This document shows, in pieces, positions 11,967 through 63,148 of a stretch of DNA of 64,000 nt. A model generated the notes under the pieces. It saw nothing but the letters and a program-made list of their open reading frames with translations, was not told the DNA's origin and searched no databases. The position numbers and the translations under genes are program-made. The stretch lies in assembly GCF_053078305.1 (NCBI RefSeq), contig NZ_CP166879.1; one strand, 5' to 3'. The number at the start of each line of letters is the position of its first letter. Positions within the stretch are counted from its first letter, which is position 1.

Positions 11967-12148
11967 AATTGCGGGCGAGTTCTGGTATCACCCTGTTGAC
12001 CACAGTGGGGCTGACAGCCCTGAGAGGTCCGGTAACCCGTTATGCACACGGCGGGGTTACAAGGCACATGCACTCCGTGAAAACCGTGCCGGGAGTCGCT
12101 CTCTCCGGAGAAGATGAGAATCAACACCGGGATTTGGTATCCCCCTGA

Positions 12149-12179
12149 AGCACCGGCTTGCCGGTGCTTTTTTGTTTTT
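12149..12179 (+). terminator. intrinsic terminator after topB
   Basis: AGCACCGGC-TT-GCCGGTGCT stem followed by TTTTTTGTTTTT. Confidence 0.7.
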
Positions 12180-12232
12180 GGTTAGCTGTTGACTTTTTCC
12201 ATCAGTGATTTCAGTCTGTCCGGGCACATAAC

Positions 12233-12515
12233 GTCGCTCCGGCGACCACCAATGCTCCACAAGTGGCCTGAGAGGAGCGCCTTCGGGTGGCTACATGTCG
12301 CTTCGGCGACCACCAATGCTCCATAAGTGGTCTGAGAGGAGCGCCTTCGGGTGACCACATCCCGCTTCGGTGGGCACCAATGTTCCGTTGATCTGAGAGG
12401 AACGCCTTCGGGTGATCAACACCCCCGTAACCTGAAAGGGGATGTGCAGCCAGGATGTTTCTGGTGGTGGTAAATCTGCCCACCTTTGAGAGCAGATATC
12501 GTCAGTCATGACGAT
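12233..12515 (+). ncRNA. STAXI-type repeated-pseudoknot element, copy 1 (three 64-nt modules plus a conserved ~90-nt tail)
   Basis: Modules start at 12233, 12297 and 12361. Each has a tetraloop hairpin (GTCGC-TTCG-GCGAC), CCAAT, and a pseudoknot with covarying stems. G-U pairs are only possible in the + sense. Confidence 0.7.
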
Positions 12516-12644
12516 GAAGGTTTTCTTTAACTGTTACTGAGTCAGCCGGAATAGTTCTGTTCCGGCTCCCTGACGGGAATATCACAACCCGTCAGGGATG
12601 ATGATGTTCTCTGTCTTTCCGATACTGAGAATGGAGATATCATT

Positions 12645-43099: not shown

Positions 43100-43348
43100 T
43101 CACTCAGGATCTGATGGAGGTTTTTTACGAGAATTAAACTTATCGATCAGATTAAAAACTATCGCTGCTAGTGTTATCGATGTACCTGCTATGCACCCAA
43201 ACACAATAACTCTTATCATTTGGTGGGTCGGGAAAAAAAAGAATCCTTTTGTTAGGTAAATAAATAAAGCTCCTCCCCCCATCAAAAGAAATCCACTGAT
43301 GATACAAAAGAGGCATGCATATATGAACAATACAATGTAAGCAATCAT
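43100..43348 (-). CDS. cdiI: CdiI immunity protein (82 aa, integral membrane)
   Basis: 4-nt overlap with the cdiA stop. Hydrophobic helices IVLFIYACLFCIISGFLLMGGGALFIY and VIVFGCIAGTSITLAAIVF. Confidence 0.7.
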   Translation of the reverse strand: MIAYIVLFIYACLFCIISGFLLMGGGALFIYLTKGFFFFPTHQMIRVIVFGCIAGTSITLAAIVFNLIDKFNSRKKPPSDPE

Positions 43349-46300
43349 TTCCCCTCCTCCTTCTTCGCGCTAGAAGAGAACTGATTATTACTACTTGCTT
43401 CTTTTATATATCCACCAAGAAATTCACTACCAAAAGATCCTGTCGCATCAAATATAAATCCCGGAAACTCTTTCCCAGTAACTGAGTTTACTATTCCGGG
43501 AGCATATACTCCAAATGCTCCACCCAATCCGGCCCCGGCAGCAGCCCCTCCAATAGAGCCTGTATTTGGACCATCGGTAAAGAATGCACCACCCATCGCA
43601 ATTCCGACGTTTTGTCCGACAGTTCTCCCCGGCGCAAGCATACCCGCAATGCCTGAACTGGCACTGCTTTTCCAGTCCCAGTTTTTGTTTTCATTACCTG
43701 GCTGGCTTAAATCAAACCACTGGTAACTTCCATTGGCTATCTCCGCGACGACTCCACCACTGACCATTTTACCGACCGAAGCAGCAGGCCCCAGATACCA
43801 TGCCCCGGCAATCATTACACCATCCTGATATCCATCCACGATCACTTTCGTGATATTGGTGCTGTCCGGCATATCACCTTTCGCTATCTTATCCAGTCCA
43901 GCCTGTGTTTGTTCCGGTGTCAGATTATTGTCCACCGCGTACTTGTTCCATGATGTAGCCGCAGCAGCATTGCTTTCAAAACCATCACCGAAGCTGAGCG
44001 CATTATTCTCAACCGTCGTCTTACCTGACTGTGCTCCGGCTACCGCTGAAGCTCCCGAATCTCCCACCAGACCACCGGCCAGGCCGGCAGCAACCGTTGC
44101 CAGTGTCGAGACCGTCTGCTTCTCTGTCCCGCTCAGTTCACTCACCGGCTTACCGTACATCTGTGTGGCTATCATTCCCACCACCTCGCCGGTGGCTGCG
44201 CCTGCGGCACCAGCCAGAGCATTCTTACCCTGTGCCAGAGACAGGGCTGCATTCACTACTGCATGAGCTGCCACACGTCCCGCACCGTCCGGGGTGGTCT
44301 GTTTGATAATTTCAGCAATATACGGTGCTGCACCACCTGCCAGGGCTGCACTCAGATTACCGCCGGCCAGCCCCTGTACTGCTGCCGTTGCGGCCTGTAT
44401 CGCCTGCTGGTATTTGCCTCCCGTTCCAAAACCTGAGGCCGCCATACCGTTATTGTAGGCCCGCTGCGCCACATCCTGTTCCGTGAACGGTTTTCCTGCT
44501 GCCTCAAGCTCCTCACGGGCCTGATTCAGTGCTGCCGGGTCCCGCTTCGCTTTCTCACCAGCTATCTGGCCTTCCGTTCTGGCAATATCTGCCACCTGGT
44601 TACCAATCTCACCAATGAGCTGCGCCTGCTGCAGTCGCTGCTGCTCTTTTTCCCTGTCAAAGATGGGGGACAGCGTCTGGTTTGCATGTGCTGCGTCACG
44701 GTTCAGGTCTGCCACATCCTGTTTCTGGCTCTGCGTATCCCGGATGGTGATATTCCCGGCAGACACAGCCGACTGAGTGGTGCTTTCTGCATGGCCTTCA
44801 TGATTTGCACCAACCAGCAGATTGTTGGCCATATTTCCCGCGAACTGGCCACCGATGCTGCCGCCAGTGCTGATACCCACGCTCTGGTGTTCAACTTTGT
44901 AATCAGCACGATTTTCGATATCACGGAAGCCCAGTGTACCGGTATCCAGCCGGTTTTTATCTGCCGTTGCCGTGGACGCAATCACCGCACCGTTCAGTTG
45001 CGTATGCTGTCCGGTGGTGACATCAAACCCGCCCCTGCCGGCAAAAATCCCCGTCTGCTCCTGCACACTGTCATAGTTACTGTGCATTTTATCCCGGCTG
45101 AGGCTCACACTCGCCGAACCGCTCATGGACCCGAAAGTGAAGCTGCCTCCGGCACTGGCATTCTGCTGCTTACTGTCATAACGGTCACTGTCCTGCTCAC
45201 TGGTCAGTGTCAGATGACGACCGGCATCCACTTTCACCGTTTCACCGCCGGCCTGCACGCCGGTAAGCGTGGTGTCCCGCCCGCTGATAATGGTCAGGCG
45301 GTTTCCCGCATCCACCGTGGTTTCTGTATGGGTGGTACCGTTGCCTTTTTCACTGCCCTTACCCTGGTTTGCGCTGGCTGAAACACTGATACCCCAGCCT
45401 CCGGCCCCCACACCGATACCGACACCCACACTGCCGCCACTGGATGAGTTCTTTCCTTCCAGCTTTGACGTGTTTTCTGCTGATACCAGATTCACGTCAC
45501 GGTTTGCCTGCAGCAGAACGTTGTTCCCTGCCTTTATCTGACTGCCCTGTATCGTCAGGTCACCATCCACGTCCTTCACGCCGGAGCCGGTGGCCTGAAT
45601 ACTGAGGTTATTACCTGCGGTCAGGGCGCTGTTCTTCGCCACCGTCTGCTCTGACTGCTGTTCTGATTTCGAAGACTGGCTGCCGTAAGAGAGGCTGATA
45701 CCCACGGCATTGTTATTCTCTTTCTGGTTGCCCTGTGCTTCTGCCAGTCGTCCGGCCTGCACGGCCTGAGCCCCCGAGAGCGCGGCCTTCACCCCCTGCA
45801 GGGCTTCAAGCCGGCTGTTTCCGGCAGATTTCGCCGCCTGCACGGTCTCCACCGTCGTGTTCAGGGCGCTGCCCACTGTGCCGGACAGGGCAAGCGTCAG
45901 ACCGGAGGTTTTCTGCTCCACCGAATGCGTCTGCACATGCCGGTCTGTGACGGCGCTAATGCTGACCTCCTTACCACTGAGTGCCATGTCCCTGCCGGCA
46001 ATCAGGTCAGCACTGTTGGCGCTCAGCCGGTTACCTGCCTGAAGGGAAACATCACCGTGAACACTCCCCACCGTGCTGCCTTTCTGTGTGCTGTCTGTTG
46101 CGGTGTCCGTGACTTTCAGACTCTGGCTGCCCACACTGAATCCCACACCTCCGGAGCTCATCAGCCCGGATTTTTTCTCCTGTTTCAGGTGTGTTTCACG
46201 GTTGCTTTCTGTCAGCGTGCCGATACTCAGGTCATTTCCGGCAGCCAGGGAGACACGGTTATCCCCGGCCACACTGCTGCCCGTGACGTTCAGATTATGT

Positions 46301-49300
46301 CCGGCACTGATACTGACCGTATCCCCGTTCAGTTCACTGCCCGTCATGGTCCGGCGGTCAGTGACATCATGCGTGGTTGTGGTGGTTTTCGATAACATCC
46401 CGCTGCTGCCGGTCACTTTATGGTATTCATCCAGCGAGCGGGTATTCTGTGCACCGGTCAGCGTCACGTCATGACCTGCCATCAGGGCCAGGCCTTTCTG
46501 AGCTGACAGCGATGCCGCCTGTGACGTCATATCCCGTCCGGCGGTCAGCGTGACATCACCGTTACCGGCAAGCGTGCTGCCCGTACTCTGTGTGACGCCC
46601 TGCGACAGACGATTATTTTTATCCCAGATAATATTGTCCTGCGCGGAAGTGGTCACTGTGGAAAGCGTCATATCCCTGCCCGCACTGAGTTGCGTCAGGC
46701 TGTCCTTACCCTGATTCACCACCGTTGCAGCCGTCAGATTCATATCCCGTCCGGCCTGCAGCACCAGTCTTCCCTGGTCGTTCTGCACATACACGCCGGC
46801 CACACTGTCGATACTGGTACGTTCAAAATGGTTCTGTCCGGCGTCGCGCTGTGCCGTACGGGTGGTGGTGGTCAGACTGATATCCCGTCCGGCCATCGCC
46901 AGCAGGCTGTCCGTGGCCTGCAGCAGCCCGCCGGTACTGTTAATATCCGTCCGGGCCGTCAGGCTGACATTTGCTCCCTGAATGGAGCCGGCCTGGTTGT
47001 GAATGTTTTCTGCACTGAGCTGCACGGTCTGCTTCCCGGCCAGTTTACCGCTGTTAAACAGGTCACCATCCAGCTTCATCACCATGTCCCTGCCGGCAAT
47101 CAGCGCACCGGCACTGTTCACATCACCGGGTTTTACACGGGCATACACCTGAGGTACCTGAACTGTCTGCGTGCTGCCGTCCGGCAGTGTCACCGTGGTG
47201 TTAACCAGCCAGACAATATCCCCGGTCAGTAACGCCATCTGCTCAGCCGTCAGCGCCACACCCGGTTTCAGGTTGTATTGCTTACCAAATGCAATACCCG
47301 CATCCATTAATGCCTTAAACTGCTCTTCATCACTGCCGTATCTGTCCAGGTACCGTTGCCCGGTCAGAGCGACAACCTGCTCTCGAATCAGACGCTGCTC
47401 GTAAAAACCGTCTCCCAGACGTTTGAGCATGTTATCCCCGTTCTGAGAAAACGCCTTCTGCATGTAATCACTGCCCAGCCACATCTTCTGGTTCGTAAAA
47501 CGCGGGTCCGTTTCAACCAGATATGGCACATTCACTGCCGGATTTGTTTTAAACAGACTGCTGTCCGGCAGACGGGTATCCGGCCCGGCAACATGGATAC
47601 TGCCCTGAGGTGTGCTGACTTCAAACTGCTGCCCCGGCAACAGAATGACCGGTTCACCGGCAGACACCACCGGGCGAAGCGGTATCCGGTCAGTAGCGGC
47701 TACTGCCGCATCCACATTTCCGGCCTGTCCTGTCTGTACATCCGTTCCCTGTGGCTTCAGAGGAGAAAGCGTGACCTGGCTGCCCTGAATCTGTCCGTGG
47801 CTGGTGAGCTCTCCCGGCTTCAGCGTAATGCTCTGAATTACAGTGGGCGGAGTGTACTGAGAGGTTTTCTCCCCCTGCTTATCCTTTCCTTTTTTCCTGA
47901 TACGGTAATAATACGTGGATGTTCCTGAGTCCGTAACATGCCGCTCGCCACTGACACTGACATTTTCCACGCTTCCTGACGGAATGGTCAGCAGGCCGCC
48001 TGCAACAACCTGACTCTTATCATTAAGCAGTTTGTCTGCCACAATCGTCATGCCGGCACCGGACAGAATTTTTCCCGGGTCGGAGTCTTTTACCCGGGTT
48101 TCTTCCACGGTACGGGTGTAATCATACTGCGTGAATTTATCTCTGGCGCCTTCCGGTGTATGCAGTTTTTTCAGTGAGTTACTGGAATCGTTATCCACAT
48201 AAACGCCCGGTTCACCGGCGCTCCAGCGTTTATCTGAGCCGCTGAGCTGATACTCAGTCACCTTTTCCGTGGAAACCACCACGCGCTCCGTGGTGAAATG
48301 GTCATTGACGTTATTGATTTGTCCGGCACTCAGTACCAGATATCCGGCGGCTTCAATAGTGGCACTGTGATTATTCAGTACACCGGCTTTCCCCGTGGCG
48401 GCACCATTCGCATCCAGCATGCCACCAGTATGCATATCACCTGCACTGTAAATCAGGCTGTGCGTCCGGTTATTCAGGGTCTGTACCCCTAAGTCCACAC
48501 GCTCACGCCCGGCCAGCGTCGCCGCCACGCCATTTTCTTCCAGATTATTAAATGTGGCAGCGCTGACACCAACAGCATCGCCGTAGATTCGCCCGGTACC
48601 GGAATTCGTCAGGGTGTTCGCCTGAAGATGCGTATATTTCCCGTCAATCAGCCCACGGTTCAGCAGTGTGTCCGTCACGTTAAGCCAGGTCTGCCCGGCA
48701 CTGATTTCACCTTTCTCTGTGTTTTCAAGGCGGATGCTGTTCAGGTCAAGCCGGCTGCCTGCCAGCAGGCTGCCGGTATTAGAGACATCGCCATTAACGG
48801 AAAGCGTAAGGTTTCCGTTCGCAATAGTCTGACCACTGTTGCTGAACGTTGTGTTACTTTTCAGCGTCATATCGCCCAGCGAAAGCAGTTTCCCGTCACC
48901 ACCGAGCTGACCGGCATCCACAGATACTGACTGCCCGGCCTTAACCACGCCGTCACGGTTCGAAAACGCCAGCTGACGGCCACTGACAGACAATGTCGCG
49001 CCGGAAGAGAGGACGCCGTCATTATTACTGAGCGTCCTGTCTGCCATAACCGTAAGCGCCCTGTCTGCCAGAATACTGCCCTCCTGGTTATCAAGGTCCT
49101 GCGTCGTGATGTGTATTGTCTGCGCTTCCAGCCCCTGACCGGTATTCTGCGTGTGGCGATTGATAAACTGCAGGGCGTTCAGCGTAATGGCGGAACCACT
49201 GCGAATCAGACCAGAGACGTTGTCCACAACGCCCCGTACACTGTTGAGCAACATGTCGCCCACAGACTGTATTTGTCCGTGGCTGTTCTGCAGACCTCCC

Positions 49301-52290
49301 GTATGCAGACGGAGTTCACCTTCACTGACCAGCCGGCCCCCCTCACGGTTATCCAGCGAGGTGGTGCTCAGGTCAGCTGTCGTTTTCGCCCCCACGGTCC
49401 CGCCCCGGTTATCCATTGCTCCGGTACTGACAGTCAGTTCCTGCAGGCTGTTCAGCGTACCGCGTCTGTTATCCAGCGTCTGGCCTGCGGTATTAATGCT
49501 GATACCCCTCCCCTGAATAAGACCGGACTGATTGTTCAGCGCCTGGCTGTTCCAGCCGAGCAGACCGTTTGCCACCATCTGACCGGATGTATTGTTAACC
49601 ACGCCTGCAGTCAGGGACAGAGCATCTCCCGACAAAAGCACACCGGCAGTGCTGTCCAGTGTGCCGGCATTCAGCGTCATCGGACCCTGACTGATAACCC
49701 CGCCCCGGTCACCACTATTACGGTTACTCAGTGTGTCAGCACGGAGATTCAGCGATGCACCGCTCTGTATCAGGCCGCCGGCATCGTTGATGATATCCGT
49801 CGAGGAAAGTGTCAGTGACTGCTGTGCCACCAGTCTGCCGCCCTGATTATCAAACCGTGTGACATCCAGCCTGCTGTTACCGTTGCTGACCACCGTCCCC
49901 TGCTGATTTTCCAGCACACTCAGGTGCGTATTCAGGTCCCCGCCGGCGGCAAGCGCCCCTTCCTGATTACTGACATCACCACCACTCAGCAACATATCCG
50001 TCCCGGCCTTCAGTGCGCCTTTCTGGTTCATCAGCGTACCTGACGATATCTGTAATGACGTCTGACTCCCCAGCACGCCCTGACGGTTATCGAGCGTTCC
50101 GGCGTTCAGGGTCATATCCTTCTGACCCGCCATAAATCCCTGCTGGTTATTCAGCATACCGGCCCGCACTGTCAGGGTACCGGCGCTGCTGATACCACCC
50201 CGTGTTTTCGTGTTCCGGTTACTGAGTACCCCGTCCTGTACATCCAGCGTCATGTCACTGCCGGACTGAATCAGACCATCATCAGAGACCAGTTCGCTGC
50301 CTGACACAGACAGCGTTTTCTGTGAAAGCAGTCTGCCGGACGTATTATCCAGCGCACCATCCAGCGTCACAGACAGCCCGTCAGCCACCACCGTACCCTG
50401 GTGGTTATTCAGATTCCCTGCCGAAATATCCAGCCTGCCGGCGGACTCCATTCGTCCCTCAGTATTGCTGACAGCCTGCTGTGTTTTTATCCTGCCCGTT
50501 CCGGCAGCAGCTGAAATCAGTCCGTTGTCGTTATTCAGCGCCTGTGTATTAATCAGGATGTCACGGCTGGCAAGCAGACGTCCCTGCTGGTTATCCACGG
50601 CGCCGGTTGTCCTCACCTGCAGACTGCCTGACTGCGCCGCCTGCACTTTCCCCCTGCGATTATCAAGGCTCAGTGCATCCAGACGCACCGCGCCATTTGC
50701 CGCAAACAGCCCTTCCCGGTTATCCACGCTTCCCGGCAGACTCAGCGAAAAATCCCCTGTTCCCGTCTGAGTCAGACTGCCTTTACGATTTGACAGGCTT
50801 TGTGCCGATATCTGCAGTGTGTCGGCATTTATCGTGCCACCATTATTGCTGAAGTGCCCGACAGTCCGGGCGGAAAGCGTACCGGCACTCAGTTGCGCAT
50901 TCTGTGTGGACAGATTTCCACTGGTTGCATCCAGCTCAGTATGTTGTCCCTGTATCCGGCTGTTGCTTAAATCCAGCCCCTGCCCCTTCAGTTGCATGTC
51001 CCCACCGGACAGAACCTGTCCGTGTGCCGCCAGTTCGCCGGTGGTACTGACAGTCAGGTTGCCCGCTGCCGCCAGACGTCCGTCATCTTTCACCCCGGCG
51101 GCCAGCAGACTCCGCTCACCGCCGGTCAGACGCGCTGTCTGAATCCGGGTGTTGCGACGTGATGCCACAGAGCCTGTATGGGTGAAGACACCATCACTCT
51201 GTATCTGCGTATCCTGCCCCGCATAAACAGAACCACTGTTATGCAGCTCCCGGGTTGTCGCCAGATGCACATCCGTTTTCGCACTGATACTGCCACTGTT
51301 TTCAATACGTCCGTCAGCCGTCAGGGTAACCGCCCCTGCCTGTGCACCAATATGACCGGCGTTACGAACACCCACCCCCGTTTCCGTACCGACAAGGCGA
51401 ATTTTTCCGGCATACATTCCGCCAAGACTGGCCACATCCAGTGCCATCTGAGGCTGTGAAGAGACATCACCGGTCTTTTTCTCAATCTGCCCGTGCGCGA
51501 TATCCACATTGTTACGTCCTGTGGTCACTTTCAGATCCTGCGCCCAGATACCCGCATTAATCTTCACAGACCGGGCAATGATATCGGTATAATCCGTGCG
51601 CGAGGCATCCATCCCTTTGCCCGTAACCTGAATCTCACCACGTTCAACACTGAATCCGGTCAGACTGCCGTTTTTCATCTGCGGCTGCCCCGTGGTCAGC
51701 GTGGCCCGGTTCGCATTAATAAAACCGCACCCGTCGCAACTGATGCCGGCCGGGTTCGCAATCACCACCTGCGCCTTTTTACCGGCAACCTCAACAAAAC
51801 CGTTCAACTGGCTGGGATTGCGACTGTTCACTTCATTAAGAATGATTCTGGCCTCTCCCTTAGCCAGCCACGGGTTCCCGGCCACCATGCCACCCAGTTG
51901 AGTCTGCACATTGTTATGGGCATTATTCAGAATGACGCCCTGGTTACCGACGTCGAACTGGCTGTATGCGTTATGTGAAACCCCGCCGGCAGAAGGCGTC
52001 TGAATATTCACCTGCGGAATGCCGCTGGCCGTCTGCGTAATCGTGGGCTGCTGATACCCTGGTGCGCCATGGTCTGCGACAATGCCTGCAGCACTGACAG
52101 AATGCACCATCCCCGAAGCCAGCCACAAAGAGAATGCAAGCGGCGTGACACGGCAGATACGTTGCCTGTGTGGATATCCTGTGCGGGAGGACAGTGATGT
52201 ACCGGCGCGACCGGAACGGGCAATATCTGCCACCACCATCAGCATTCCCCGGGCTTTGTTAAAAATAATGCGGTAACAATTTCTGTTCAT
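43345..52290 (-). CDS. cdiA: CdiA contact-dependent inhibition exoprotein (2981 aa)
   Basis: ESPR signal MNRNCYRIIFNKARGMLMVVADIA; TPS domain (NAYSQFDVGNQGVILNN, IANPAGISCDGCGFINA); long FHA-type repeats; VENN at 44002-44013 followed by a 218-aa CT. Confidence 0.95.
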   Translation of the reverse strand: MNRNCYRIIFNKARGMLMVVADIARSGRAGTSLSSRTGYPHRQRICRVTPLAFSLWLASGMVHSVSAAGIVADHGAPGYQQPTITQTASGIPQVNIQTPSAGGVSHNAYSQFDVGNQGVILNNAHNNVQTQLGGMVAGNPWLAKGEARIILNEVNSRNPSQLNGFVEVAGKKAQVVIANPAGISCDGCGFINANRATLTTGQPQMKNGSLTGFSVERGEIQVTGKGMDASRTDYTDIIARSVKINAGIWAQDLKVTTGRNNVDIAHGQIEKKTGDVSSQPQMALDVASLGGMYAGKIRLVGTETGVGVRNAGHIGAQAGAVTLTADGRIENSGSISAKTDVHLATTRELHNSGSVYAGQDTQIQSDGVFTHTGSVASRRNTRIQTARLTGGERSLLAAGVKDDGRLAAAGNLTVSTTGELAAHGQVLSGGDMQLKGQGLDLSNSRIQGQHTELDATSGNLSTQNAQLSAGTLSARTVGHFSNNGGTINADTLQISAQSLSNRKGSLTQTGTGDFSLSLPGSVDNREGLFAANGAVRLDALSLDNRRGKVQAAQSGSLQVRTTGAVDNQQGRLLASRDILINTQALNNDNGLISAAAGTGRIKTQQAVSNTEGRMESAGRLDISAGNLNNHQGTVVADGLSVTLDGALDNTSGRLLSQKTLSVSGSELVSDDGLIQSGSDMTLDVQDGVLSNRNTKTRGGISSAGTLTVRAGMLNNQQGFMAGQKDMTLNAGTLDNRQGVLGSQTSLQISSGTLMNQKGALKAGTDMLLSGGDVSNQEGALAAGGDLNTHLSVLENQQGTVVSNGNSRLDVTRFDNQGGRLVAQQSLTLSSTDIINDAGGLIQSGASLNLRADTLSNRNSGDRGGVISQGPMTLNAGTLDSTAGVLLSGDALSLTAGVVNNTSGQMVANGLLGWNSQALNNQSGLIQGRGISINTAGQTLDNRRGTLNSLQELTVSTGAMDNRGGTVGAKTTADLSTTSLDNREGGRLVSEGELRLHTGGLQNSHGQIQSVGDMLLNSVRGVVDNVSGLIRSGSAITLNALQFINRHTQNTGQGLEAQTIHITTQDLDNQEGSILADRALTVMADRTLSNNDGVLSSGATLSVSGRQLAFSNRDGVVKAGQSVSVDAGQLGGDGKLLSLGDMTLKSNTTFSNSGQTIANGNLTLSVNGDVSNTGSLLAGSRLDLNSIRLENTEKGEISAGQTWLNVTDTLLNRGLIDGKYTHLQANTLTNSGTGRIYGDAVGVSAATFNNLEENGVAATLAGRERVDLGVQTLNNRTHSLIYSAGDMHTGGMLDANGAATGKAGVLNNHSATIEAAGYLVLSAGQINNVNDHFTTERVVVSTEKVTEYQLSGSDKRWSAGEPGVYVDNDSSNSLKKLHTPEGARDKFTQYDYTRTVEETRVKDSDPGKILSGAGMTIVADKLLNDKSQVVAGGLLTIPSGSVENVSVSGERHVTDSGTSTYYYRIRKKGKDKQGEKTSQYTPPTVIQSITLKPGELTSHGQIQGSQVTLSPLKPQGTDVQTGQAGNVDAAVAATDRIPLRPVVSAGEPVILLPGQQFEVSTPQGSIHVAGPDTRLPDSSLFKTNPAVNVPYLVETDPRFTNQKMWLGSDYMQKAFSQNGDNMLKRLGDGFYEQRLIREQVVALTGQRYLDRYGSDEEQFKALMDAGIAFGKQYNLKPGVALTAEQMALLTGDIVWLVNTTVTLPDGSTQTVQVPQVYARVKPGDVNSAGALIAGRDMVMKLDGDLFNSGKLAGKQTVQLSAENIHNQAGSIQGANVSLTARTDINSTGGLLQATDSLLAMAGRDISLTTTTRTAQRDAGQNHFERTSIDSVAGVYVQNDQGRLVLQAGRDMNLTAATVVNQGKDSLTQLSAGRDMTLSTVTTSAQDNIIWDKNNRLSQGVTQSTGSTLAGNGDVTLTAGRDMTSQAASLSAQKGLALMAGHDVTLTGAQNTRSLDEYHKVTGSSGMLSKTTTTTHDVTDRRTMTGSELNGDTVSISAGHNLNVTGSSVAGDNRVSLAAGNDLSIGTLTESNRETHLKQEKKSGLMSSGGVGFSVGSQSLKVTDTATDSTQKGSTVGSVHGDVSLQAGNRLSANSADLIAGRDMALSGKEVSISAVTDRHVQTHSVEQKTSGLTLALSGTVGSALNTTVETVQAAKSAGNSRLEALQGVKAALSGAQAVQAGRLAEAQGNQKENNNAVGISLSYGSQSSKSEQQSEQTVAKNSALTAGNNLSIQATGSGVKDVDGDLTIQGSQIKAGNNVLLQANRDVNLVSAENTSKLEGKNSSSGGSVGVGIGVGAGGWGISVSASANQGKGSEKGNGTTHTETTVDAGNRLTIISGRDTTLTGVQAGGETVKVDAGRHLTLTSEQDSDRYDSKQQNASAGGSFTFGSMSGSASVSLSRDKMHSNYDSVQEQTGIFAGRGGFDVTTGQHTQLNGAVIASTATADKNRLDTGTLGFRDIENRADYKVEHQSVGISTGGSIGGQFAGNMANNLLVGANHEGHAESTTQSAVSAGNITIRDTQSQKQDVADLNRDAAHANQTLSPIFDREKEQQRLQQAQLIGEIGNQVADIARTEGQIAGEKAKRDPAALNQAREELEAAGKPFTEQDVAQRAYNNGMAASGFGTGGKYQQAIQAATAAVQGLAGGNLSAALAGGAAPYIAEIIKQTTPDGAGRVAAHAVVNAALSLAQGKNALAGAAGAATGEVVGMIATQMYGKPVSELSGTEKQTVSTLATVAAGLAGGLVGDSGASAVAGAQSGKTTVENNALSFGDGFESNAAAATSWNKYAVDNNLTPEQTQAGLDKIAKGDMPDSTNITKVIVDGYQDGVMIAGAWYLGPAASVGKMVSGGVVAEIANGSYQWFDLSQPGNENKNWDWKSSASSGIAGMLAPGRTVGQNVGIAMGGAFFTDGPNTGSIGGAAAGAGLGGAFGVYAPGIVNSVTGKEFPGFIFDATGSFGSEFLGGYIKEASSNNQFSSSAKKEEGK

Positions 52291-52305
52291 TCTGATAAAC
52301 CTGAC

Positions 52306-52833
52306 TTATCTCTCCGGCACATCCACAGCAAGCGGGTGCTGCACACGCCACTGGCGCGCCTCTTCACGACTGACCTGTGCACCCCGGAAATTCATCACCC
52401 GTAACCCGGTCTGCTGCCCACGGTGGTACAGCGAACGCCAGCACAGACGGGGAAAAATATCCTGCCGGACAAGACGACTCATATCCGGAGTGTGTCCAAA
52501 AGGGGCAACCCAGTCACAGACCCACATCCGGTCGCCGCTGTTCCAGTCCGACTGAGGCATGAGAATTGCCGGCTGCGTAAGATAACGCGCCTCTGCCTCC
52601 GGGCTGAGCCAGGCCTGGCTCATGAAGAAAACCGGTCGCCCCTGCTCTGTTGCCACCACATACTGTCGGTGCTTAATCACCGGCAGCTGCAGGTCCGGCA
52701 GGGTATGCAGTGGCGCATCACGATGCAGGGGGGAGTGCATCCACAACCAGACGGCCGCCCCCAGGACTTCCGCCTCATTGACCGGCTCACCGGAATACAG
52801 GGGACTCAGAACGTCATATTTCCCGTTACGCAT
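52306..52833 (-). CDS. cdiC: CdiC, HlyC/TAAT-family toxin-activating lysine acyltransferase
   Basis: LGAAVWLWMHSPLHR, WNSGDRMWVCDWVAPFG parallel the HlyC motifs LGHVSWLWASSPLHR, WTSGDRKWFIDWIAPFG. Located between cdiB and cdiA. Confidence 0.85.
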   Translation of the reverse strand: MRNGKYDVLSPLYSGEPVNEAEVLGAAVWLWMHSPLHRDAPLHTLPDLQLPVIKHRQYVVATEQGRPVFFMSQAWLSPEAEARYLTQPAILMPQSDWNSGDRMWVCDWVAPFGHTPDMSRLVRQDIFPRLCWRSLYHRGQQTGLRVMNFRGAQVSREEARQWRVQHPLAVDVPER

Positions 52834-52842
52834 GAAACTTTC

Positions 52843-54582
52843 TCAGAAATCCCGGAACAGATTAAAACCGGCTGTCACATCACTCGTCATAAAACCCGCC
52901 GGCTTTGAAAACGGACGACCGATGAAAACGTCATAATCCGTACTGAACAGTTGCCCCCTCAGCCCCACAACACCACCGGCCAGATGACGTCCCACCAGAT
53001 ATTCACTGCCGGCTCCCCCCACCTCGCCGTAATCCATTCCCAGATATAACGCCTGCTCCGGCAGTGGCGTACGCCAGGCCAGGTCGTTGCGGATATACCA
53101 GCCGTTACTGGCATTCAGCGTTCGCTCCCCGTCAAAACCACGAACCGTCCAGCGGTTACCGATGGCAAACTGTTCCTGTGGGGTCAGCGGGGTATTGCTC
53201 AGCTGGCGCTGATACCGGAAGGAATAACTGAAGGGCTGCTCTGCCAGTGTAAAGGGCAGATTAAAGGATGCATTCATCTGCAGGATCTTACTGAGCGCCG
53301 TTGCCTCACCGAAGATTTCCTCCGGTGCCGGCTGTGCACCAAACCAGCGGGTTCCCCGTTGCCAGCTGACACCAGCATCCAGTGTGGCCTGAGAAATATA
53401 ATGACGGTGCTGCAGCCCAAGTCGCCAGGCCGCTGTCTGCCGGCGCTGCACCTGGATTTCCGTATCATTAATGTAGTTACGCGACCTGCGGGCCTGAACA
53501 TCGTAAGTCAGCACCGTTTTCTGCGTCCCGTTACGATGCAGTACCCGGCTCAGCTGCATGCCCAGATTCTGACTCTCGCCACTGTACTGGTAATCCTCAA
53601 CCGCACCAGCTACCGTCTGATGGTAATCGTAATCACTGGCGGTGACGGAAAACTGCCAGTAACCGAAAGGCACAGAGTAATGGGCCGTGTAGTTTTTACT
53701 GCCCTTACCCCCGTAATGTGGAAAATTATGGGTGGCAGAAACATACAGCAGGTCACTCAGGGAAAAAGGATTATCCAGAGAAAATGTTATACCACCGAGA
53801 TAACGCCCTGTGCTGCGGGTACCTGAATCATCAAGCGAAAACCCCAGTCGCCAGTATTTATCCTGTTTACGGGTAATAAGAATATCACTTTCCCCTGGCT
53901 GCTCACCGGGCACAATTTCCATATCAGCCTGCACACCCGGCAGTCGTTGCATATTCTCCAGCCCCTGCTCAATGTCCCGTAAATCCAGCAGAGAACCTTC
54001 GTGTGCCGGGAATGAGGAATACAACTGAATATAGTCATCACTGTCCGGTGTCAGACGCACATGTCGCACAACACCGGGAATAACAACCAGCCGGAGGATA
54101 CCGCTTTTTAAATCCTGCGAAGGTGCCAGAACACGGGTGGTGACATAACCATGATCGACAAGACGGTTCTGCAATGTACTCATCAGCAGATTAATTCCTT
54201 TCGCCCCCAGGCAATGCCCGACCGCCCCGTTGGCGATTTTTTGTAAAGGCAGCCAGTGTGGTAACGCATCAGCCCCCTTCAGTTCCGTCTGTTTAATCTG
54301 AAAACAGGGCGTTTCAACAGGAAAATTAATCTTATGGGCAAAAGAGCCAGGTGCAGAAAGGCGAACATCAGGGGCTGAAGGCGTCAGTTGTTGCTCAAGG
54401 GCTTCCTGACGCTGCTGCTGAATGATAAATGTATCCTCTCCACTACGCCGGATATCCGCGGCCTGAAGAGATAAAGGCGATAATAAAACAGACATCAGTG
54501 TCAGTGATAAAATGAACGGACAGCGCCGGAATAAGCTTTGTTCCTCAGCCCTCTCGTTCCTGCAACATAATTTTCCAGCCAA
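52843..54582 (-). CDS. cdiB: CdiB TpsB-family (ShlB/FhaC-type) outer-membrane transporter
   Basis: Signal peptide ...[15 protein letters not shown]-type N-terminus, beta-barrel ending in ...GFNLFRDF. Alternative start at M30 (54495). Confidence 0.9.
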
Positions 54583-55776: not shown

Positions 55777-56165
55777 CGTGTACTATATAATATATCCCCT
55801 GGCATACTGCCAGGGGATGTTGTTTTTCTGTATGTCATTTTATGATGATACCTTTGATATTCTTATAGATGTTTAGGTGAACTGTTAATGATAAATATTG
55901 TCCGATATTATACTTTCTTGTAAGTATATTTTGGGGAGGTTATTTTTATTAAGGTTTTAAATGTTTTATTTTGTTCGCTTTTTCTTTCTCTGTTTGTTGT
56001 TTCTTGCTATTACAACTATCTTGTGATTGTTTATATGCTAAACATAATTCTGATGTTTTAGTACATGTAACATATTGACACATTCTTTATCTGTTTGTAT
56101 TTTACGTGTTAGCAGTGTTTTTATTTTGACATTGCTGTTAACAACCGATTGCTGGAGAGGTGAAA

Positions 56166-56444
56166 ATGAATAAAATGTTCAGTCAGTGGATTGATTTTGA
56201 TGAGATGATTACTCCGAAGATCATCAAGGTAATATACTGGTTTTTTCTTTTTATTACAGTGGCCGGTGGTGTTATAGGTATGATAGCCAATCCGTTTGTC
56301 GGACTGCTTGGTCTTATTATGGGTATTATTGGTCTGAGGATTGGGTGTGAAATGATAATTCTTCTTTTTAATATTTATAAGCAGGTTAAAAAGATTGCTG
56401 ATGCGGTACCGGATAAAATAAACGAACAGGCTGAGGATAGTTAA
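56166..56444 (+). CDS. DUF4282-like small membrane protein
   Basis: RBS GGAGAGG. FDEMITPKIIKVIYWFFLFITVAGGVIGMI... matches the DUF4282 pattern (from memory). Confidence 0.55.
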   Translation: MNKMFSQWIDFDEMITPKIIKVIYWFFLFITVAGGVIGMIANPFVGLLGLIMGIIGLRIGCEMIILLFNIYKQVKKIADAVPDKINEQAEDS

Positions 56445-56474
56445 TTATCTCAGAATAAACATTGATGAATGGTA

Positions 56475-56511
56475 ATAACAGGGACTGTTAATACTGTCCC
56501 TGTTATTTTTT
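56475..56511 (+). terminator. intrinsic terminator
   Basis: ATAACAGGGAC-(10 nt)-GTCCCTGTTAT followed by TTTTT. Confidence 0.8.
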
Positions 56512-56559
56512 CTGCAGACTGTTTTCTGTTCTTCCTGGTTATGTTCTGAGTGATGATGA

Positions 56560-56588
56560 TTGACGCCTTTTATACGCTCTGATATGCT
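56560..56588 (+). promoter_or_regulatory. sigma70-like promoter in front of STAXI copy 2
   Basis: TTGACG-17 nt-TATGCT. The -35 lies 44 nt upstream of the first STAXI hairpin, the same spacing as TTGACT in copy 1 and within 1 nt of TTGACA in copy 3. Confidence 0.45.
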
Positions 56589-56603
56589 CAGAATGCATTA
56601 TCT

Positions 56604-56822
56604 GTCGCTTCGGCGACCACCAATGCTCCATAAGTGGTCTGAGAGGAGCGCCTTCGGGTGGCCACATCCCGCTTCGGTGGGCACCAATGTTCCGTTGATC
56701 TGAGAGGAACGCCTTCGGGTGATCAACACCCCCGTAACCTGAAAGGGGATGTGCAGCCAGGATGTTTCTGGTGGTGGTAAATCTGCCCACCTTTGAGAGC
56801 AGATATCGTCAGTCATGATGAT
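56604..56822 (+). ncRNA. STAXI-type repeated-pseudoknot element, copy 2 (two modules plus tail)
   Basis: Near-identical to modules 2-3 and the tail of copy 1. The differences are G-U-compatible in the + sense (GTGGTC/GGCCAC; ATCGTCA/TGATGAT). Confidence 0.7.
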
Positions 56823-57467
56823 GAAGGTTTCTTTTAACCGCGCCCTTTATTACGGGCAATACACAGCAGTGGTTGTGTGATCCTTATCTATCCGGTGATG
56901 CCGGAATGTTTTTACTGCGTAATGGCGGTATTGACTTCTTTTATTCTTTTCATTTGTTTGCCAGCACTTCCTGCGACTGTGCGCGCTGTATAAGACCATT
57001 TGAAATTTGGTCGCTTACGCGTGTACCTGGCGTCTGAAGCTGCGCGGCGTCACTTTCGTCAGCGTGTCACGATGACAAAGTGACGCACGCGCGTCTGCTT
57101 AACGAACCCGCACGAACTGCCGTTTCACGTGATGTTTTTTAACATTTGAAGAAGTGACCCGGCGTGAGAGTGTTTTTTCAACCTCTTCTGCAAATTTACG
57201 GACGATTTTGTGAATAACGTCCATAAATGGTTTTTTGCAGAATTAATTGTTTTTTAAGGAGTTTTATGTAGTGAGATGCCGAATCGGCGATACCACTTAT
57301 TAGAGGTGGTGTCGGGGGCGACCTGGAGACAGGTACAGCAAATGCTGCAGTCGGTGTGCAACACCGATTTGTTACCCCTCAATACCTAAACAATCTGCGC
57401 TACCCTGGCGCACAGGCAGTCACTACCCGAAGGATCGCAACGTTTAACCGTGTCGTCAGGGAGAAAT

Positions 57468-57518
57468 GCAGATGAGTTTTTCTGTTGTGTTCACGGCACA
57501 ACAGAAAAACTCATCTGC
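57468..57518. repeat. perfect 22-bp inverted repeat with a 7-nt spacer (lox/FRT-like architecture)
   Basis: GCAGATGAGTTTTTCTGTTGTG-TTCACGG-CACAACAGAAAAACTCATCTGC, 49 nt upstream of the recombinase ATG. Confidence 0.9.
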
Positions 57519-57567
57519 CGAACGTACAGCTGTTTAAGGTAAAAATTATTATGTGCAGGAGAAGTTG

Positions 57568-58470
57568 ATGTCCAGACGTGAAAAATTACTGAAACAGGAT
57601 CTGGTTGCTCACATTCGAAAAGACAAAGGCAGCTTCAAGAAGCTGAGTGATTACACCAGGATCATGCACCGCTTTGCTGAAAGTCTGGCAAAAATGAATG
57701 TACAGATCAGTTCTGCCGCGCAGGTAAAAGTCCGGCATATTGAGCTATATATGAGAAGCCGGAGTAATGTTTCTGGGCGAACAAGGGAAAATGAAATGTC
57801 TGCAATACGGGTTATGTTACGTCAGGCAGGTAAATATAAGATGGCTGATCCCGAACATCCTCGTCTCAGCAATAAAGCGTTAGGCATTTCCGGCTCCAGT
57901 CGTAAGGGAACAAAAAAATTAATCACGGATGAGCGTTTTCGGGAGATTCTTCAGCGTGTGGAAGCAAAAGATAAAGGGGTGGCTGCTGTTGTTAAACTGT
58001 CACGTTACCTCGGTCTGAGAAATGAAGAAGCTATCCAGTCGGCCAAATCATTACGAACCTGGAAAAAAGCGTTACAACGGGGAGATGAAAAAATAAGAGT
58101 GATTTTTGGTACGAAAGGGGGACGGGAAAGAATGACAACGGTTGTTGACCGGGATAACGTTCTTGATGCTGTTAATTATGCACTCAAATATGCCAGTGAA
58201 CATAATGGACGTCTTATAGACAGAGATAATCTTAAGTCGGCAATGGATTATTATCTTAATACATTACGTCGTTATGGAGAACTGAAAGGCGGAGATGAGA
58301 CTGCACACAGTTTTCGGTACAGTTACGCTGCAAGTGCCATGAAATATCATATTATGAACGGTTACAGTTATAAGGAGGCACTTGCACTGACATCAATTGA
58401 TCTTGGTCATGGTGATGGCAGAGGACGATATATTGAACAGGTTTATTGTCAGTTGTTAGGCTATGAGTAA
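57568..58470 (+). CDS. tyrosine recombinase / integrase-family protein
   Basis: RBS AGGAG. Catalytic-type residues in LGLRNEE (R), GTKGGRER (K), AHSFRYSYA (HxxR), LGHGDG (H), RYIEQVY (Y). Confidence 0.75.
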   Translation: MSRREKLLKQDLVAHIRKDKGSFKKLSDYTRIMHRFAESLAKMNVQISSAAQVKVRHIELYMRSRSNVSGRTRENEMSAIRVMLRQAGKYKMADPEHPRLSNKALGISGSSRKGTKKLITDERFREILQRVEAKDKGVAAVVKLSRYLGLRNEEAIQSAKSLRTWKKALQRGDEKIRVIFGTKGGRERMTTVVDRDNVLDAVNYALKYASEHNGRLIDRDNLKSAMDYYLNTLRRYGELKGGDETAHSFRYSYAASAMKYHIMNGYSYKEALALTSIDLGHGDGRGRYIEQVYCQLLGYE

Positions 58471-58827: not shown

Positions 58828-58856
58828 TTGACATTCATCTTTTGTGATTTAAAAAT
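58828..58856 (+). promoter_or_regulatory. sigma70-like promoter in front of STAXI copy 3
   Basis: TTGACA-17 nt-AAAAAT; -35 is 43 nt upstream of the first hairpin. Confidence 0.4.
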
Positions 58857-58870
58857 ATACAGGCTTATAT

Positions 58871-59089
58871 GTCGCTTCGGCGACCACCAATGCTCCATAA
58901 GTGGTCTGAGAGGAGCGCCTTCGGGTGACCACATCCCGCTTCGGTGGGCACCAATGTTCCGTTGATCTGAGAGGAACGCCTTCGGGTGATCAACACCCCC
59001 GTAACCTGAAAGGGGATGTGCAGCCAGGATGTTTCTGGTGGTGGTAAATCTGCCCACCTTTGAGAGCAGATATCGTCAGTCATGACGAT
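58871..59089 (+). ncRNA. STAXI-type repeated-pseudoknot element, copy 3 (two modules plus tail)
   Basis: Near-identical to copy 2 and to modules 2-3 of copy 1. Confidence 0.7.
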
Positions 59090-59227
59090 GAAGGTTTCTT
59101 TATAACTGCGCCCTTTATTAACGGGCTTTTTCTGACAGCAACACCATGCTGTACTGGTGGTGTTTTAACCCTGACGGGAGTTTTTGTCCGTCGGGGCGAA
59201 GGCTCCCGTTTTTTTACAGGAGTCTTT

Positions 59228-59620
59228 ATGTCAACGTTTATTTTGTGCCCTGAACCGGGCATCTCTTCTTTTTTCCGGCGAATGACGGCTCAGTTGCGGG
59301 TGTTTTTTTCCCGCAATAACCTGTCATATTACAGTCGCTGGTACACTAATCCGGCCGGCAATCTGAGCGTGCGGGTCTGTATGTTCCGTCGTGGCGGTGT
59401 CTGGACACCCTGCCTGTATTACCGGCAGGGAATGTATCGCAACGAGTACACAGGATGGTATCAGCCGTTACCGCGTGAGGTCATTTATCTGAACCGGTTT
59501 ACCGGACGGATATCCCGTCGCAGGACATGGCATGCTGCCTGCCGTATGGCGGAGCAACTGACCACCCTGCGTTACCGGTTTGGTCTGCAGGGTGATGGAA
59601 TCGTCGCACAGCCCTGCTGA
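59228..59620 (+). CDS. hypothetical protein (130 aa)
   Basis: ATG after CAGGAG. The track ORF 59060.. runs in from the STAXI element and is trimmed here. Confidence 0.45.
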   Translation: MSTFILCPEPGISSFFRRMTAQLRVFFSRNNLSYYSRWYTNPAGNLSVRVCMFRRGGVWTPCLYYRQGMYRNEYTGWYQPLPREVIYLNRFTGRISRRRTWHAACRMAEQLTTLRYRFGLQGDGIVAQPC

Positions 59621-59640: not shown

Positions 59641-59685
59641 CGGGAACACGCTTCCCGCAGGGCAGGTGTGTTCCCGTTATTTTTT
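59641..59685 (+). terminator. intrinsic terminator
   Basis: CGGGAACAC...GTGTTCCCG followed by TTATTTTTT. An alternative hairpin CCCTG...CAGGG overlaps it. Confidence 0.6.
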
Positions 59686-59702
59686 GTATCTGAGGTGAAC
59701 AC

Positions 59703-61581: not shown

Positions 61582-61965
61582 ATGGGACTCGATATTTACT
61601 TTCTGGCTCGTGATAACCATCACAGTGGTGCCGTTGTGGGAACACAGGAACATCAGGAGGTGGGGGCTTTCCGTAAGGTGAAACCGCTTCTGACATGGTT
61701 TCGTGAACATACCGGTGCTTCAGATGAGCAGCATGCTTTCCCTGTAACCCGCAGTTCACTGGCTGCATTATTGCGCGACCTCAGTATGCTGACACCGGGG
61801 AACTGCCACAGGCTGTTTCCTTATGTCACAGGCTCGTGTTTACGGGGGGAAGATTATGCCGGTGATTACTGGTATGACGTGGATGACGTAAAAGCGTGGG
61901 TCAGCAATACGCTGAAGACGTTTGATTTTGAGCGTCGTTCACTGGTGATGCTGGCGTTGTGGTAA
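61582..61965 (+). CDS. hypothetical protein (127 aa)
   Basis: ATG after CAGGAGAA. Confidence 0.5.
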   Translation: MGLDIYFLARDNHHSGAVVGTQEHQEVGAFRKVKPLLTWFREHTGASDEQHAFPVTRSSLAALLRDLSMLTPGNCHRLFPYVTGSCLRGEDYAGDYWYDVDDVKAWVSNTLKTFDFERRSLVMLALW

Positions 61966-62057
61966 TTCTGGCCAGTCTGATTTTCGTTATTAATTTAACT
62001 GTACGGTGCACTCTCACCGTACAGGGAGCGTGCATCTTTTTCAGGGGGCATGCTCTT

Positions 62058-63035
62058 ATGAAAACGAAAAAACATACTTCACGTACCGCGATTAAAACTC
62101 CGGAACGTGACCTGTATCAGCTTGTGACCGACAGGGTTGTTACGGCCATTGAAAATGGTGTGCCACCCTGGAAACGTCCCTGGCGCTCTGCGCGTAATGG
62201 CGTGGGGCTTCCGGAGATGATGCCGGCAAATGCCCTGACCGGGAAGCCTTATACAGGGGTGAACGTCCTGTTGCTGTGGCTGGCCGCGGATGAAGCCGGG
62301 TATGTCAGCAATGACTGGCTGACGTACCGTCAGGCGCAACAACTGGGTGGCCACGTCCGTAAAGGGGAGGTGGCCACGCTGGCGGTGATTTACAAAGACT
62401 GGAAAAAACAGGCTGTGGATGAACACGGTAACCGGCTGACGGACAGTGAGGGGGAGCCTCTCATGGAAATCGTACCGGTACTGAAATCGAATCCTCTGTT
62501 TAATGTGGGGCAGTGTGACGGTTTACCTGAACATCTGATGGTGAAGGCGGAAGGCAGCGCGGATGCACTGCCGGCAGATACCTTCAGTGAGCGGGTGCTG
62601 CAGGTACTGAATGGCAGCGGCGTCAGCGTCTCGTCACTTCCACAGGACAGGGCATTCTACCGGCCTGATCTTGACCGTATCGTGATGCCACTGTCGTCGC
62701 AGTTTGACCAGGTGGCTGATTACTGGACCACCCTGCTGCATGAGCTGGTACACAGTACCGGTCATGAAAAGCGCCTGCGGCGGGTGGGGATAAGTACCTT
62801 TACCGGTCGCAAAAGCCCGGAATATGCGTTTGAAGAGCTGATTGCCGAGATGGGCAGTGCTTTTCTGTGTGCACATCTCGGGATTGCCGGTGACGTACAG
62901 CACGAAAGTTATATTGACGGATGGCTTAAGGTTCTGAAGTCTGACAAAAAAGCGCTGTTTCGCGCCTGCCGGCAGGCACGTGAAGCATCAGAGTATTTAC
63001 TGACGCGGCGAACTTCGCAGGAGTGCGCAGCATAA
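62058..63035 (+). CDS. ardC: ArdC-like antirestriction protein (ssDNA-binding N-domain plus zincin metalloprotease)
   Basis: DLYQLVTDRVVTAIENGVPPWKRPW and NDWLTYRQAQQLGGHVRKGE (ArdC-N); HELVHSTGH HExxH motif. Confidence 0.8.
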   Translation: MKTKKHTSRTAIKTPERDLYQLVTDRVVTAIENGVPPWKRPWRSARNGVGLPEMMPANALTGKPYTGVNVLLLWLAADEAGYVSNDWLTYRQAQQLGGHVRKGEVATLAVIYKDWKKQAVDEHGNRLTDSEGEPLMEIVPVLKSNPLFNVGQCDGLPEHLMVKAEGSADALPADTFSERVLQVLNGSGVSVSSLPQDRAFYRPDLDRIVMPLSSQFDQVADYWTTLLHELVHSTGHEKRLRRVGISTFTGRKSPEYAFEELIAEMGSAFLCAHLGIAGDVQHESYIDGWLKVLKSDKKALFRACRQAREASEYLLTRRTSQECAA

Positions 63036-63081: not shown

Positions 63082-63118
63082 GAGGGCATTGTACCTCACG
63101 GGACAATGCCCTCTTTTT
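63082..63118 (+). terminator. intrinsic terminator after ardC, with a competing upstream hairpin
   Basis: GAGGGCATTGT...ACAATGCCCTC followed by TTTTT. The mutually exclusive hairpin is CCCGTGAGG/CCTCACGGG (63077-63102). Confidence 0.7.
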
Positions 63119-63148
63119 ACATCTGTATAAAAAAGAGGAGCGTAAACA

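Follow-up and report, generated by a model that had tools for sequence, protein, structure and literature searches.

STAXI and its closest described relatives

STAXI is a structured motif that was described by Weinberg et al. in 2010 (PMC2864571) and is now Rfam family RF01728. It has been an orphan ever since, with the question of whether it works as RNA or as single-stranded DNA left open by its discoverers, who argued the point from tetraloops only and did not mention a promoter (PMC2864571). It is also among the commonest non-coding features of MPF_G conjugative islands. The subject here is copy 2, the second of three STAXI copies in a 64,000-nucleotide stretch of DNA (contig NZ_CP166879.1, assembly GCF_053078305.1; "the window" is that whole stretch), and the sequence TTGACG-17-TATGCT in front of it. 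This sequence is very probably the sigma70 promoter of a STAXI transcription unit and a part of the STAXI element itself. We found no earlier report of a STAXI promoter in the literature searched. What is new is therefore the promoter and its presence across the family, the family itself having been known since 2010.

Which described elements come closest? In conjugative elements, the Frpo/ssi sequences precede ssb and genes of the anti-restriction type, and they have boxes resembling -35 and -10 hexamers (PMC11541004; PMC9849209), which in Frpo form inside a long hairpin of the transferred strand (PMC11541004). The STAXI hexamers, in contrast, lack a complementary partner and resemble a normal duplex promoter that precedes a structure of the RNA type. 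A second motif, EFASI (RF02957), is found 3' of copy 2 on the same strand, in agreement with the description of that family; unlike STAXI, it has no conserved promoter of its own and may depend on the one in front of STAXI. Among RNAs of other kinds, put of phage HK022 and EAR of Bacillus subtilis are promoter-proximal structured RNAs that precede intrinsic terminators in the same transcription unit. Their likeness to STAXI would be one of architecture, with no similarity in sequence or structure and with a module number that varies in STAXI. The decoy RNAs CsrB and RsmZ have their own promoters and repeated structured modules, each of which displays the same unpaired motif, GGA. STAXI likewise repeats unpaired motifs, but these are CCAAUG and CUGAGAG; it has neither GGA motifs nor an integral terminator.

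Copy 2 belongs to the known STAXI family. The RF01728 covariance model, whose gathering threshold is 40.5 bits, matches the plus strand of the window at 12360-12525 (copy 1, 76.2 bits), 56603-56768 (copy 2, 90.9 bits), and 58870-59035 (copy 3, 93.6 bits), the match to copy 1 being displaced by two modules, such that it omits the first two of three. Like other members, copy 2 has tandem pseudoknot modules, UUCG loops, and a place in an enterobacterial conjugative island with topB, ssb, integrase-domain, and ArdC genes. Its module, which a STAXI RNA is expected to repeat at least twice with covariation, is present in two units of about 64 nucleotides (nt) each, followed by a conserved 3' domain that reaches to about 56831. 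This 3' domain is kept in all three window copies and takes a variant form in other genera. The Rfam model begins at the first hairpin and ends before the last two 3' elements; the unit described here is about 44 nt longer upstream, up to the conserved -35 and -10, and about 60 nt longer downstream.

A probable promoter at a fixed distance from STAXI

An earlier note on this DNA had placed TTGACG-17-TATGCT with its -35 44 nt before the first hairpin of copy 2, TTGACT with a weak -10, CAGTCT, at the same 44 nt in copy 1, and TTGACA at 43 nt in copy 3. All of these placements are confirmed in the sequence (Table 1), and the proposed start near 56595 agrees with the usual 6 to 8 nt 3' of a -10. 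The copy 2 site has the marks of a sigma70-type promoter, with near-consensus hexamers, a spacing within 16 to 18 nt, and A2 and T6 in the -10. It reaches 13.1 bits on a sigma70 weight matrix, the 4th best of 63,960 plus-strand positions in the window, and the copy 3 site ranks 2nd. The strong terminator said to precede copy 2 is real (15-nt arms, 93% complementary, and a T run) and shields the STAXI unit from upstream transcription; strong terminators precede both copies 1 and 2. In a promoter-pattern scan, the copy 2 site matches 9 of 12 positions, and the same scan found 16 promoter-like sites in the region with 8.9 expected. Taken alone, the copy 2 site is marginal, barely better than chance.

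What about the rest of the family? A pattern scan with one genome per species gave 53 loci, in which the arrays were located with a hidden Markov model (HMM) of the module. Deduplication left 31 upstream contexts, all distinct, which come from about 15 genera of enterobacteria, including Escherichia, Citrobacter, Kluyvera, Enterobacter, Superficieibacter, Pseudescherichia, Pluralibacter, Dryocola, Erwinia, Pantoea, Mixta, Chimaeribacter, Photorhabdus, and Xenorhabdus. When arrays from 20 loci were checked with Rfam, all were STAXI (52.8 to 139 bits, against the threshold of 40.5). Each array was anchored on its first CCAATG, and the sigma70 weight matrix was run over the 170 nt upstream. In 29 of the 31 contexts, the best match lies at -59 to -63 relative to that CCAATG, a 5-nt window in which chance would put it in about 3.5% of contexts. 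The word TTGAC occurs 28 times in 5,394 positions, 26 times within this window. This fixed position across the family is far beyond chance. Plasmids have it as well. The site is clear in four of five plasmid copies. A Klebsiella IncF plasmid has TTGACG-17-TACTAT, and plasmids of 5 to 6 kb have TTGATC-18-TAGTAT, TTGAAC-17-TATTCT, and TTGACC-18-TAGTAT. The fifth, on a 3.1-kb plasmid, has only a weak site.

Just how much of the upstream DNA is conserved? In an information profile of 25 promoter segments with less than 85% identity, the conserved positions are TTGAC and A2 and T6 of the -10 only; the spacer, the flanks, and the stretch from the -10 to the hairpin show no conservation. Similarity between contexts starts at the -35. 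In E. coli JNEC-KY171, unrelated cargo stands in place of the upstream DNA of copy 2, up to a point 5 nt before the -35, where similarity sets in again. The window copies themselves had been described as having unrelated upstream DNA, which holds for the 60 nt 5' of every -35 (identity, 0.22 to 0.32) and for the copy 2 spacer compared with those of copies 1 and 3 (0.24 to 0.35), but not for the spacers of copies 1 and 3, which have an identity of 0.65. Similarity that begins at the -35, together with conservation confined to the hexamers, shows that the promoter belongs to the STAXI unit as one of its own components, with the two hexamers and their spacing kept by selection. The -35 had also been called independently conserved. 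Since homology starts at the -35, the promoter is instead inherited with the STAXI unit, and there were no three separate origins. The related proposal, that each element is a discrete transcription unit, fares better in one respect: a sigma70-type promoter of its own, at a fixed distance, is strongly supported across the family and points to a transcribed element rather than a passive repeat.

Several observations weigh against this account. About 4% of shuffles of the copy 2 upstream sequence reach its score, and copy 1, with its weak -10, scores 9.0 bits, which is average for shuffles. The 31 contexts share ancestry, so that the counts overstate their independence. For the STAXI of Salmonella Typhi SPI-7, the segment entered in the Weinberg alignment (NC_004631.1/4520398-4520921) has TTGACG 65 nt before the first hairpin and a TAGTCT where the -10 usually stands, with about 21 extra nt, a GC-rich hairpin among them, in between. 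Going by that aligned segment, the canonical spacing is not universal, and the SPI-7 promoter may be interrupted or differently regulated. Lastly, E. coli EDL933 grown in rich medium yielded no more than 2 to 6 reads per STAXI copy when its RNA was sequenced (RNA-seq; PMC5331693), and at least there expression is conditional or repressed, or those copies differ. The coordinates given for them fall in IS66 elements on NZ_CP008957.1, the paper evidently being based on another assembly.

RNA or single-stranded DNA

The structure and the promoter of STAXI are on the same strand, and the pairing within the structure is of the kind expected of RNA. Over 71 to 72 distinct modules, G.U pairs number 119 (25 + 72 + 22) and A.C pairs 11 (8 + 0 + 3). 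Pairs in the P2 stem are 378 Watson-Crick, 25 G.U, and 8 A.C, and those in the pseudoknot stem are 281 Watson-Crick and 22 G.U. Both stems show clear compensatory change, which in the pseudoknot stem takes forms such as GTTCC/GGAAC, GCTCC/GGAGC, GATCC/GGATC, and GCTTC/GAAGC. The UUCG hairpin is closed by a G.U pair in 65 of 72 modules. A single-sequence RNA fold of 56595-56840, in which pseudoknots were not modelled, has a z score of -1.73, a value that is therefore uninformative.

Could the promoter be of the Frpo type, active on single-stranded DNA? No inverted-repeat partner for 56560-56588 exists within 56400-57600, and the two boxes do not lie inside a long imperfect hairpin of one strand, as those of Frpo/ssi do. 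With no complementary partner within 1.2 kb, a hairpin promoter of this type is excluded. The conserved promoter favours a STAXI that is made as RNA over one that acts as folded DNA, and RNA has in fact been seen. Strand-specific RNA-seq of Pectobacterium atrosepticum detected STAXI RNA after topB, the same context as copy 1, with reported units of 228 nt (PMC4710047), and both STAXI and EFASI were detected by quantitative reverse transcription PCR in vesicles of Shiga toxin-producing E. coli (PMC12370729).

Extent of the transcript

Where would such an RNA begin and end? We infer promoter activity from sequence, and with it the exact start site, the transcript length, and the role of the RNA. 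RNA polymerase would start at about 56594-56596, making STAXI the first RNA produced, and the nascent RNA would fold into a 5' UUCG hairpin, two pseudoknot modules, and the 3' domain. The 3' end is less clear-cut. No terminator belonging to the motif is conserved among the STAXI loci compared, and the conserved 3' hairpin of copy 2 is directly followed by GAAGGTTTC rather than by a U tract. A weak terminator-like hairpin with a T run beyond copy 2 (56891-56913) could mark where an RNA of about 320 nt ends; the Xenorhabdus loci and the small plasmids have other weak sites in comparable positions. The DNA between copy 1 and DUF3577-ssb contains no terminator. Strong terminators follow within about 40 to 110 nt in copy 3 and in several Xenorhabdus and Chimaeribacter copies; the one after copy 3 leaves just 7 nt to the Shine-Dalgarno sequence of the next gene, whose ATG is at 59228.

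The DNA 3' of copy 2 also lacks other promoters. Between 56600 and 57600, there is no candidate of at least 8.5 bits except inside STAXI, and none before EFASI or the integrase-domain gene, which is the first protein gene 3' of copy 2. Thirteen EFASI upstream regions share no conserved sigma70-like site; a separate EFASI promoter was considered and rejected, the best scores in these regions being 3 to 11 bits at scattered positions. Both EFASI and the integrase-domain gene may thus rely on the promoter in front of STAXI. The discrete RNA of about 230 nt that had been proposed is not established, as there is neither an integral terminator nor another promoter downstream, a combination that makes longer transcripts likely: RNAs of about 320 nt, or much longer leader or operon transcripts, are at least as likely. 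For copy 2, some transcripts would probably stop at the weak site, giving the RNA of about 320 nt, and the remainder would extend past EFASI and enter the integrase-domain gene in the form of a long structured leader, with the STAXI promoter as the only recognisable promoter for that gene.

Genes next to STAXI are co-oriented with it in about 30 of 31 chromosomal contexts, and in 14 of about 30 a strong hairpin (-17 to -28 kcal/mol) with a T tract stands 6 to 16 nt before the next Shine-Dalgarno sequence. An element made up of these parts recurs in the window at 59173-59227, 59641-59702, and 63082-63140, with a related one at 12560-12644. The 3' arm of its hairpin is complementary to the Shine-Dalgarno region (e.g., AAGGCTCC / GGAGTCTT), and it matches no Rfam family at the gathering threshold.

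Sequences around EFASI have features of their own. At its 5' end (57256-57271) a Shine-Dalgarno-like AAGGAG is followed by a start and a stop codon, ATG-TAG; 12 other loci have a similar purine run, lacking the start codon, in front of EFASI. The interval from EFASI to the integrase-domain gene contains a perfect 22-nt inverted repeat with a 7-nt loop (57468-57518). It has no T tract on either strand and might serve as an operator or as a site for recombination or processing. On the other side of EFASI, a non-coding block at 56967-57055 is 84% identical to sequence in E. coli plasmids of 3.1 to 5.3 kb and is followed by the inverted repeat GCGTCACTTT / AAAGTGACGC (57047-57086). A search with 56940-57530 matched 51 plasmids, and the block is inside a region matched in many E. 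coli chromosomes. A transfer origin in this block is unsupported; PLSDB types one of four STAXI-bearing small plasmids as mobilizable.

STAXI and EFASI on small plasmids

STAXI and EFASI occur as a pair at many loci, small plasmids included. In six loci on plasmids and small contigs (L025, L038, L057, L059, L060, and L061), the pair is carried by Rep_1 rolling-circle plasmids or by ColE1-like (RNAI/Rop) plasmids. As these lack an integrase and have no protein gene in common, STAXI-EFASI acts like a portable non-coding cassette. On the 3.1-kb Rep_1 plasmid, where STAXI is on the strand opposite to rep, no co-oriented gene follows the pair, and the same is true 3' of the pair on several ColE1-like plasmids. 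A phage collection yielded no match to the STAXI element.

Competing explanations

What else could a conserved promoter in front of STAXI mean? Each STAXI might be a self-contained small-RNA gene, starting at about 56595 and giving a free, trans-acting RNA of about 230 to 320 nt, with the downstream genes expressed separately. We regard this as a possible but rather doubtful alternative. The promoter evidence applies to it equally, the 228-nt units of Pectobacterium (PMC4710047) and the strong terminators soon after copy 3 and several Xenorhabdus and Chimaeribacter copies would suit it, and so would the rolling-circle and ColE1-like plasmids that carry STAXI, with or without EFASI, with no co-oriented protein gene downstream. 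It is harder to square with a conserved motif that lacks a terminator and ends in a hairpin lacking a U tract, with the merely weak site after copy 2 and nothing terminator-like between copy 1 and DUF3577-ssb, with the want of a promoter candidate for EFASI or the integrase-domain gene, and with next genes that are nearly always co-oriented. That last trait, along with a predicted start so close to the structure that STAXI is made first, would be at home in an opposite proposal, in which STAXI is a promoter-proximal leader acting in cis, either a processive antiterminator like put or EAR or an attenuator sensor, and not a free small RNA. By analogy, the nascent pseudoknot array would modify polymerase from the STAXI promoter within operons for island establishment and anti-restriction. 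Were this so, only transcripts started at STAXI would pass the strong hairpin and T-tract elements before downstream ribosome-binding sites, elements that occur in nearly half of the contexts and recur between later genes of the window (59173, 59641, and 63082). We consider both the leader role and the antiterminator activity unlikely: the case is one of architecture, the operon after copy 1 has no strong terminators, small plasmids hold STAXI with no genes downstream, a module number varying from 1 to 4 is unexpected in a put-like element, and the structure is unlike put or EAR as these are generally known.

The remaining explanations take the hexamers or the structure out of transcription. 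STAXI could be folded single-stranded DNA, a priming site or a promoter used in conjugative transfer or rolling-circle replication, in which event the TTGAC and -10 site would serve only downstream protein genes or be irrelevant. Weinberg et al. raised the idea in view of the ssb, topoisomerase, and integrase neighbours (PMC2864571); STAXI is found in MPF_G conjugative islands and on a Rep_1 rolling-circle plasmid, a kind that needs a single-strand origin, and the leading regions of plasmids have Frpo/ssi elements in similar positions (PMC11541004). Even so, we hold it to be improbable. The strand that carries the structure also has a duplex-type promoter at a constant distance, even on plasmids with no gene downstream, and this promoter has no partner for an Frpo-like hairpin; the G.U closing pair, the large excess of G.U over A.C, and the UUCG loops speak for RNA; STAXI on the Rep_1 plasmid is on the strand opposite to rep; and STAXI RNA has been detected (PMC4710047, PMC12370729). 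Alternatively, the hexamers might be kept for a reason unconnected with transcription, as a protein-binding site or recombination boundary of a STAXI cassette, or might resemble a promoter by chance and descent. Homology between contexts does end right at the -35, and STAXI copies do recombine (see below), yet two separate hexamers that agree with the sigma70 consensus where it matters most (TTGAC; A2 and T6), held 17 to 18 nt apart while the spacer drifts to random-level identity, are the signature of a promoter and not of a single site, which makes this explanation very improbable indeed.

If TTGACG-17-TATGCT is the promoter of a STAXI transcription unit, what might the RNA do? Because small plasmids keep STAXI-EFASI without any common protein gene, our guess is that STAXI is a multivalent structured RNA that would act on a host or island factor during the establishment of mobile elements.

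The locus and its three STAXI copies

The window is part of an Escherichia coli-type chromosome with a conjugative island of the MPF_G, or SPI-7-like, kind. A near-identical RefSeq E. coli locus is annotated with "integrating conjugative element" proteins and other conjugative-island genes. STAXI is known from Enterobacterales, near ssb, topoisomerase, anti-restriction, or integrase genes, and the TopB, DUF3577, SSB, Integrase_1, and ArdC genes of the window place its copies in just such company. Copy 1 lies between the topB terminator (12147-12170) and the DUF3577 and ssb genes.

TABLE 1 Features of the STAXI copies and their surroundings in the window
Feature	Position	Strand	Details
-35 of copy 2, TTGACG	56560-56565	+	From sequence; position kept in 29/31 contexts
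-10 of copy 2, TATGCT	56583-56588	+	17-nt spacer from -35
TG-extended -10 of copy 2, TGaTATGCT	56580-56588	+	TG at 56580-56581
Predicted transcription start, copy 2	56594-56596	+	8-10 nt before first hairpin; usual 6-8 nt after -10
Copy 1 promoter	-35 TTGACT 12189-12194; weak -10 CAGTCT 12212-12217	+	Hairpin at 12233, 44 nt
Copy 3 promoter	-35 TTGACA 58828-58833; -10 AAAAAT 58851-58856	+	Hairpin at 58871, 43 nt
STAXI copy 1 with promoter	12189-12525	+	Three modules from 12233; 3' domain to 12525
STAXI module 1, copy 2	56603-56666	+	Rfam RF01728; module HMM; covariation of P2, P3, and pseudoknot stem
P1 hairpin of module 1, copy 2	56604-56617	+	GTCGCTTCGGCGAC; UUCG loop
Unpaired CCAAUG of module 1, copy 2	56620	+	
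Pseudoknot with CUGAGAG of module 1, copy 2	56639	+	
STAXI module 2, copy 2	56667-56728	+	Rfam; module HMM
STAXI 3' domain, copy 2	56729-56831	+	Coordinates from sequence
First hairpin of 3' domain, copy 2	56729-56748	+	
Pseudoknot-like part of 3' domain, copy 2	56776-56804	+	GGTAAATCTGCCCACCTTTGAGAGCAGAT
Terminal hairpin of 3' domain, copy 2	56805-56822	+	Then GAAGGTTTC; no U tract
STAXI copy 3 with promoter	58828-59098	+	Array 58871-59098
Intrinsic terminator after DUF4282 gene	56474-56511	+	4-nt loop; separate scan: 12-bp stem and T tract
Weak terminator-like hairpin and T run	56891-56913	+	About 60 nt beyond 3' end of copy 2
EFASI RNA	57268-57425	+	Rfam RF02957, 53.2 bits; 430 nt 3' of copy 2
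Strong terminator-like hairpin and T tract	59173-59216	+	75 nt after copy 3; -28 kcal/mol
TopB gene	9918-11966		Pfam
DUF3577 gene	Starts 12645		Pfam
SSB (ssb) gene	Starts 13422		Pfam
DUF4282 gene	56160-56444		Pfam; ends at terminator 56474-56511
Integrase-domain gene (Integrase_1, Phage_int_SAM_2)	57553-58470	+	Pfam; RefSeq annotation of near-identical locus
ArdC gene	61959-63035		Pfam

The bodies of the three copies (12233-12525, 56603-56831, and 58871-59098) are 92 to 98% identical, as against a copy 2 promoter segment that is near random in comparison, which suggests gene conversion confined to the RNA body. In E. coli CFIAFB20190167 (locus L055, 1380-1560), topB and the copy 1 promoter and first module are fused to copy 2 and the integrase-domain gene, which in window terms joins 12189-12296 to 56603 onward. 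The roughly 44 kb between window copies 1 and 2 are missing from that strain, apparently lost by recombination between the STAXI copies.

Within the island, the minus strand at 43345-54582 holds a 2,981-amino-acid open reading frame with one of 579 amino acids upstream of it. The counterpart in a related strain is annotated "VENN motif pre-toxin domain," and the two reading frames are probably contact-dependent inhibition cargo.

Implications for the STAXI family

Overall, the value of these results lies in the annotation of a known family and not in a new kind of system. For an element this common in MPF_G islands, the conserved promoter places the likely 5' end of the RNA about 8 to 10 nt before the first hairpin, and the inherited STAXI unit begins at the -35.

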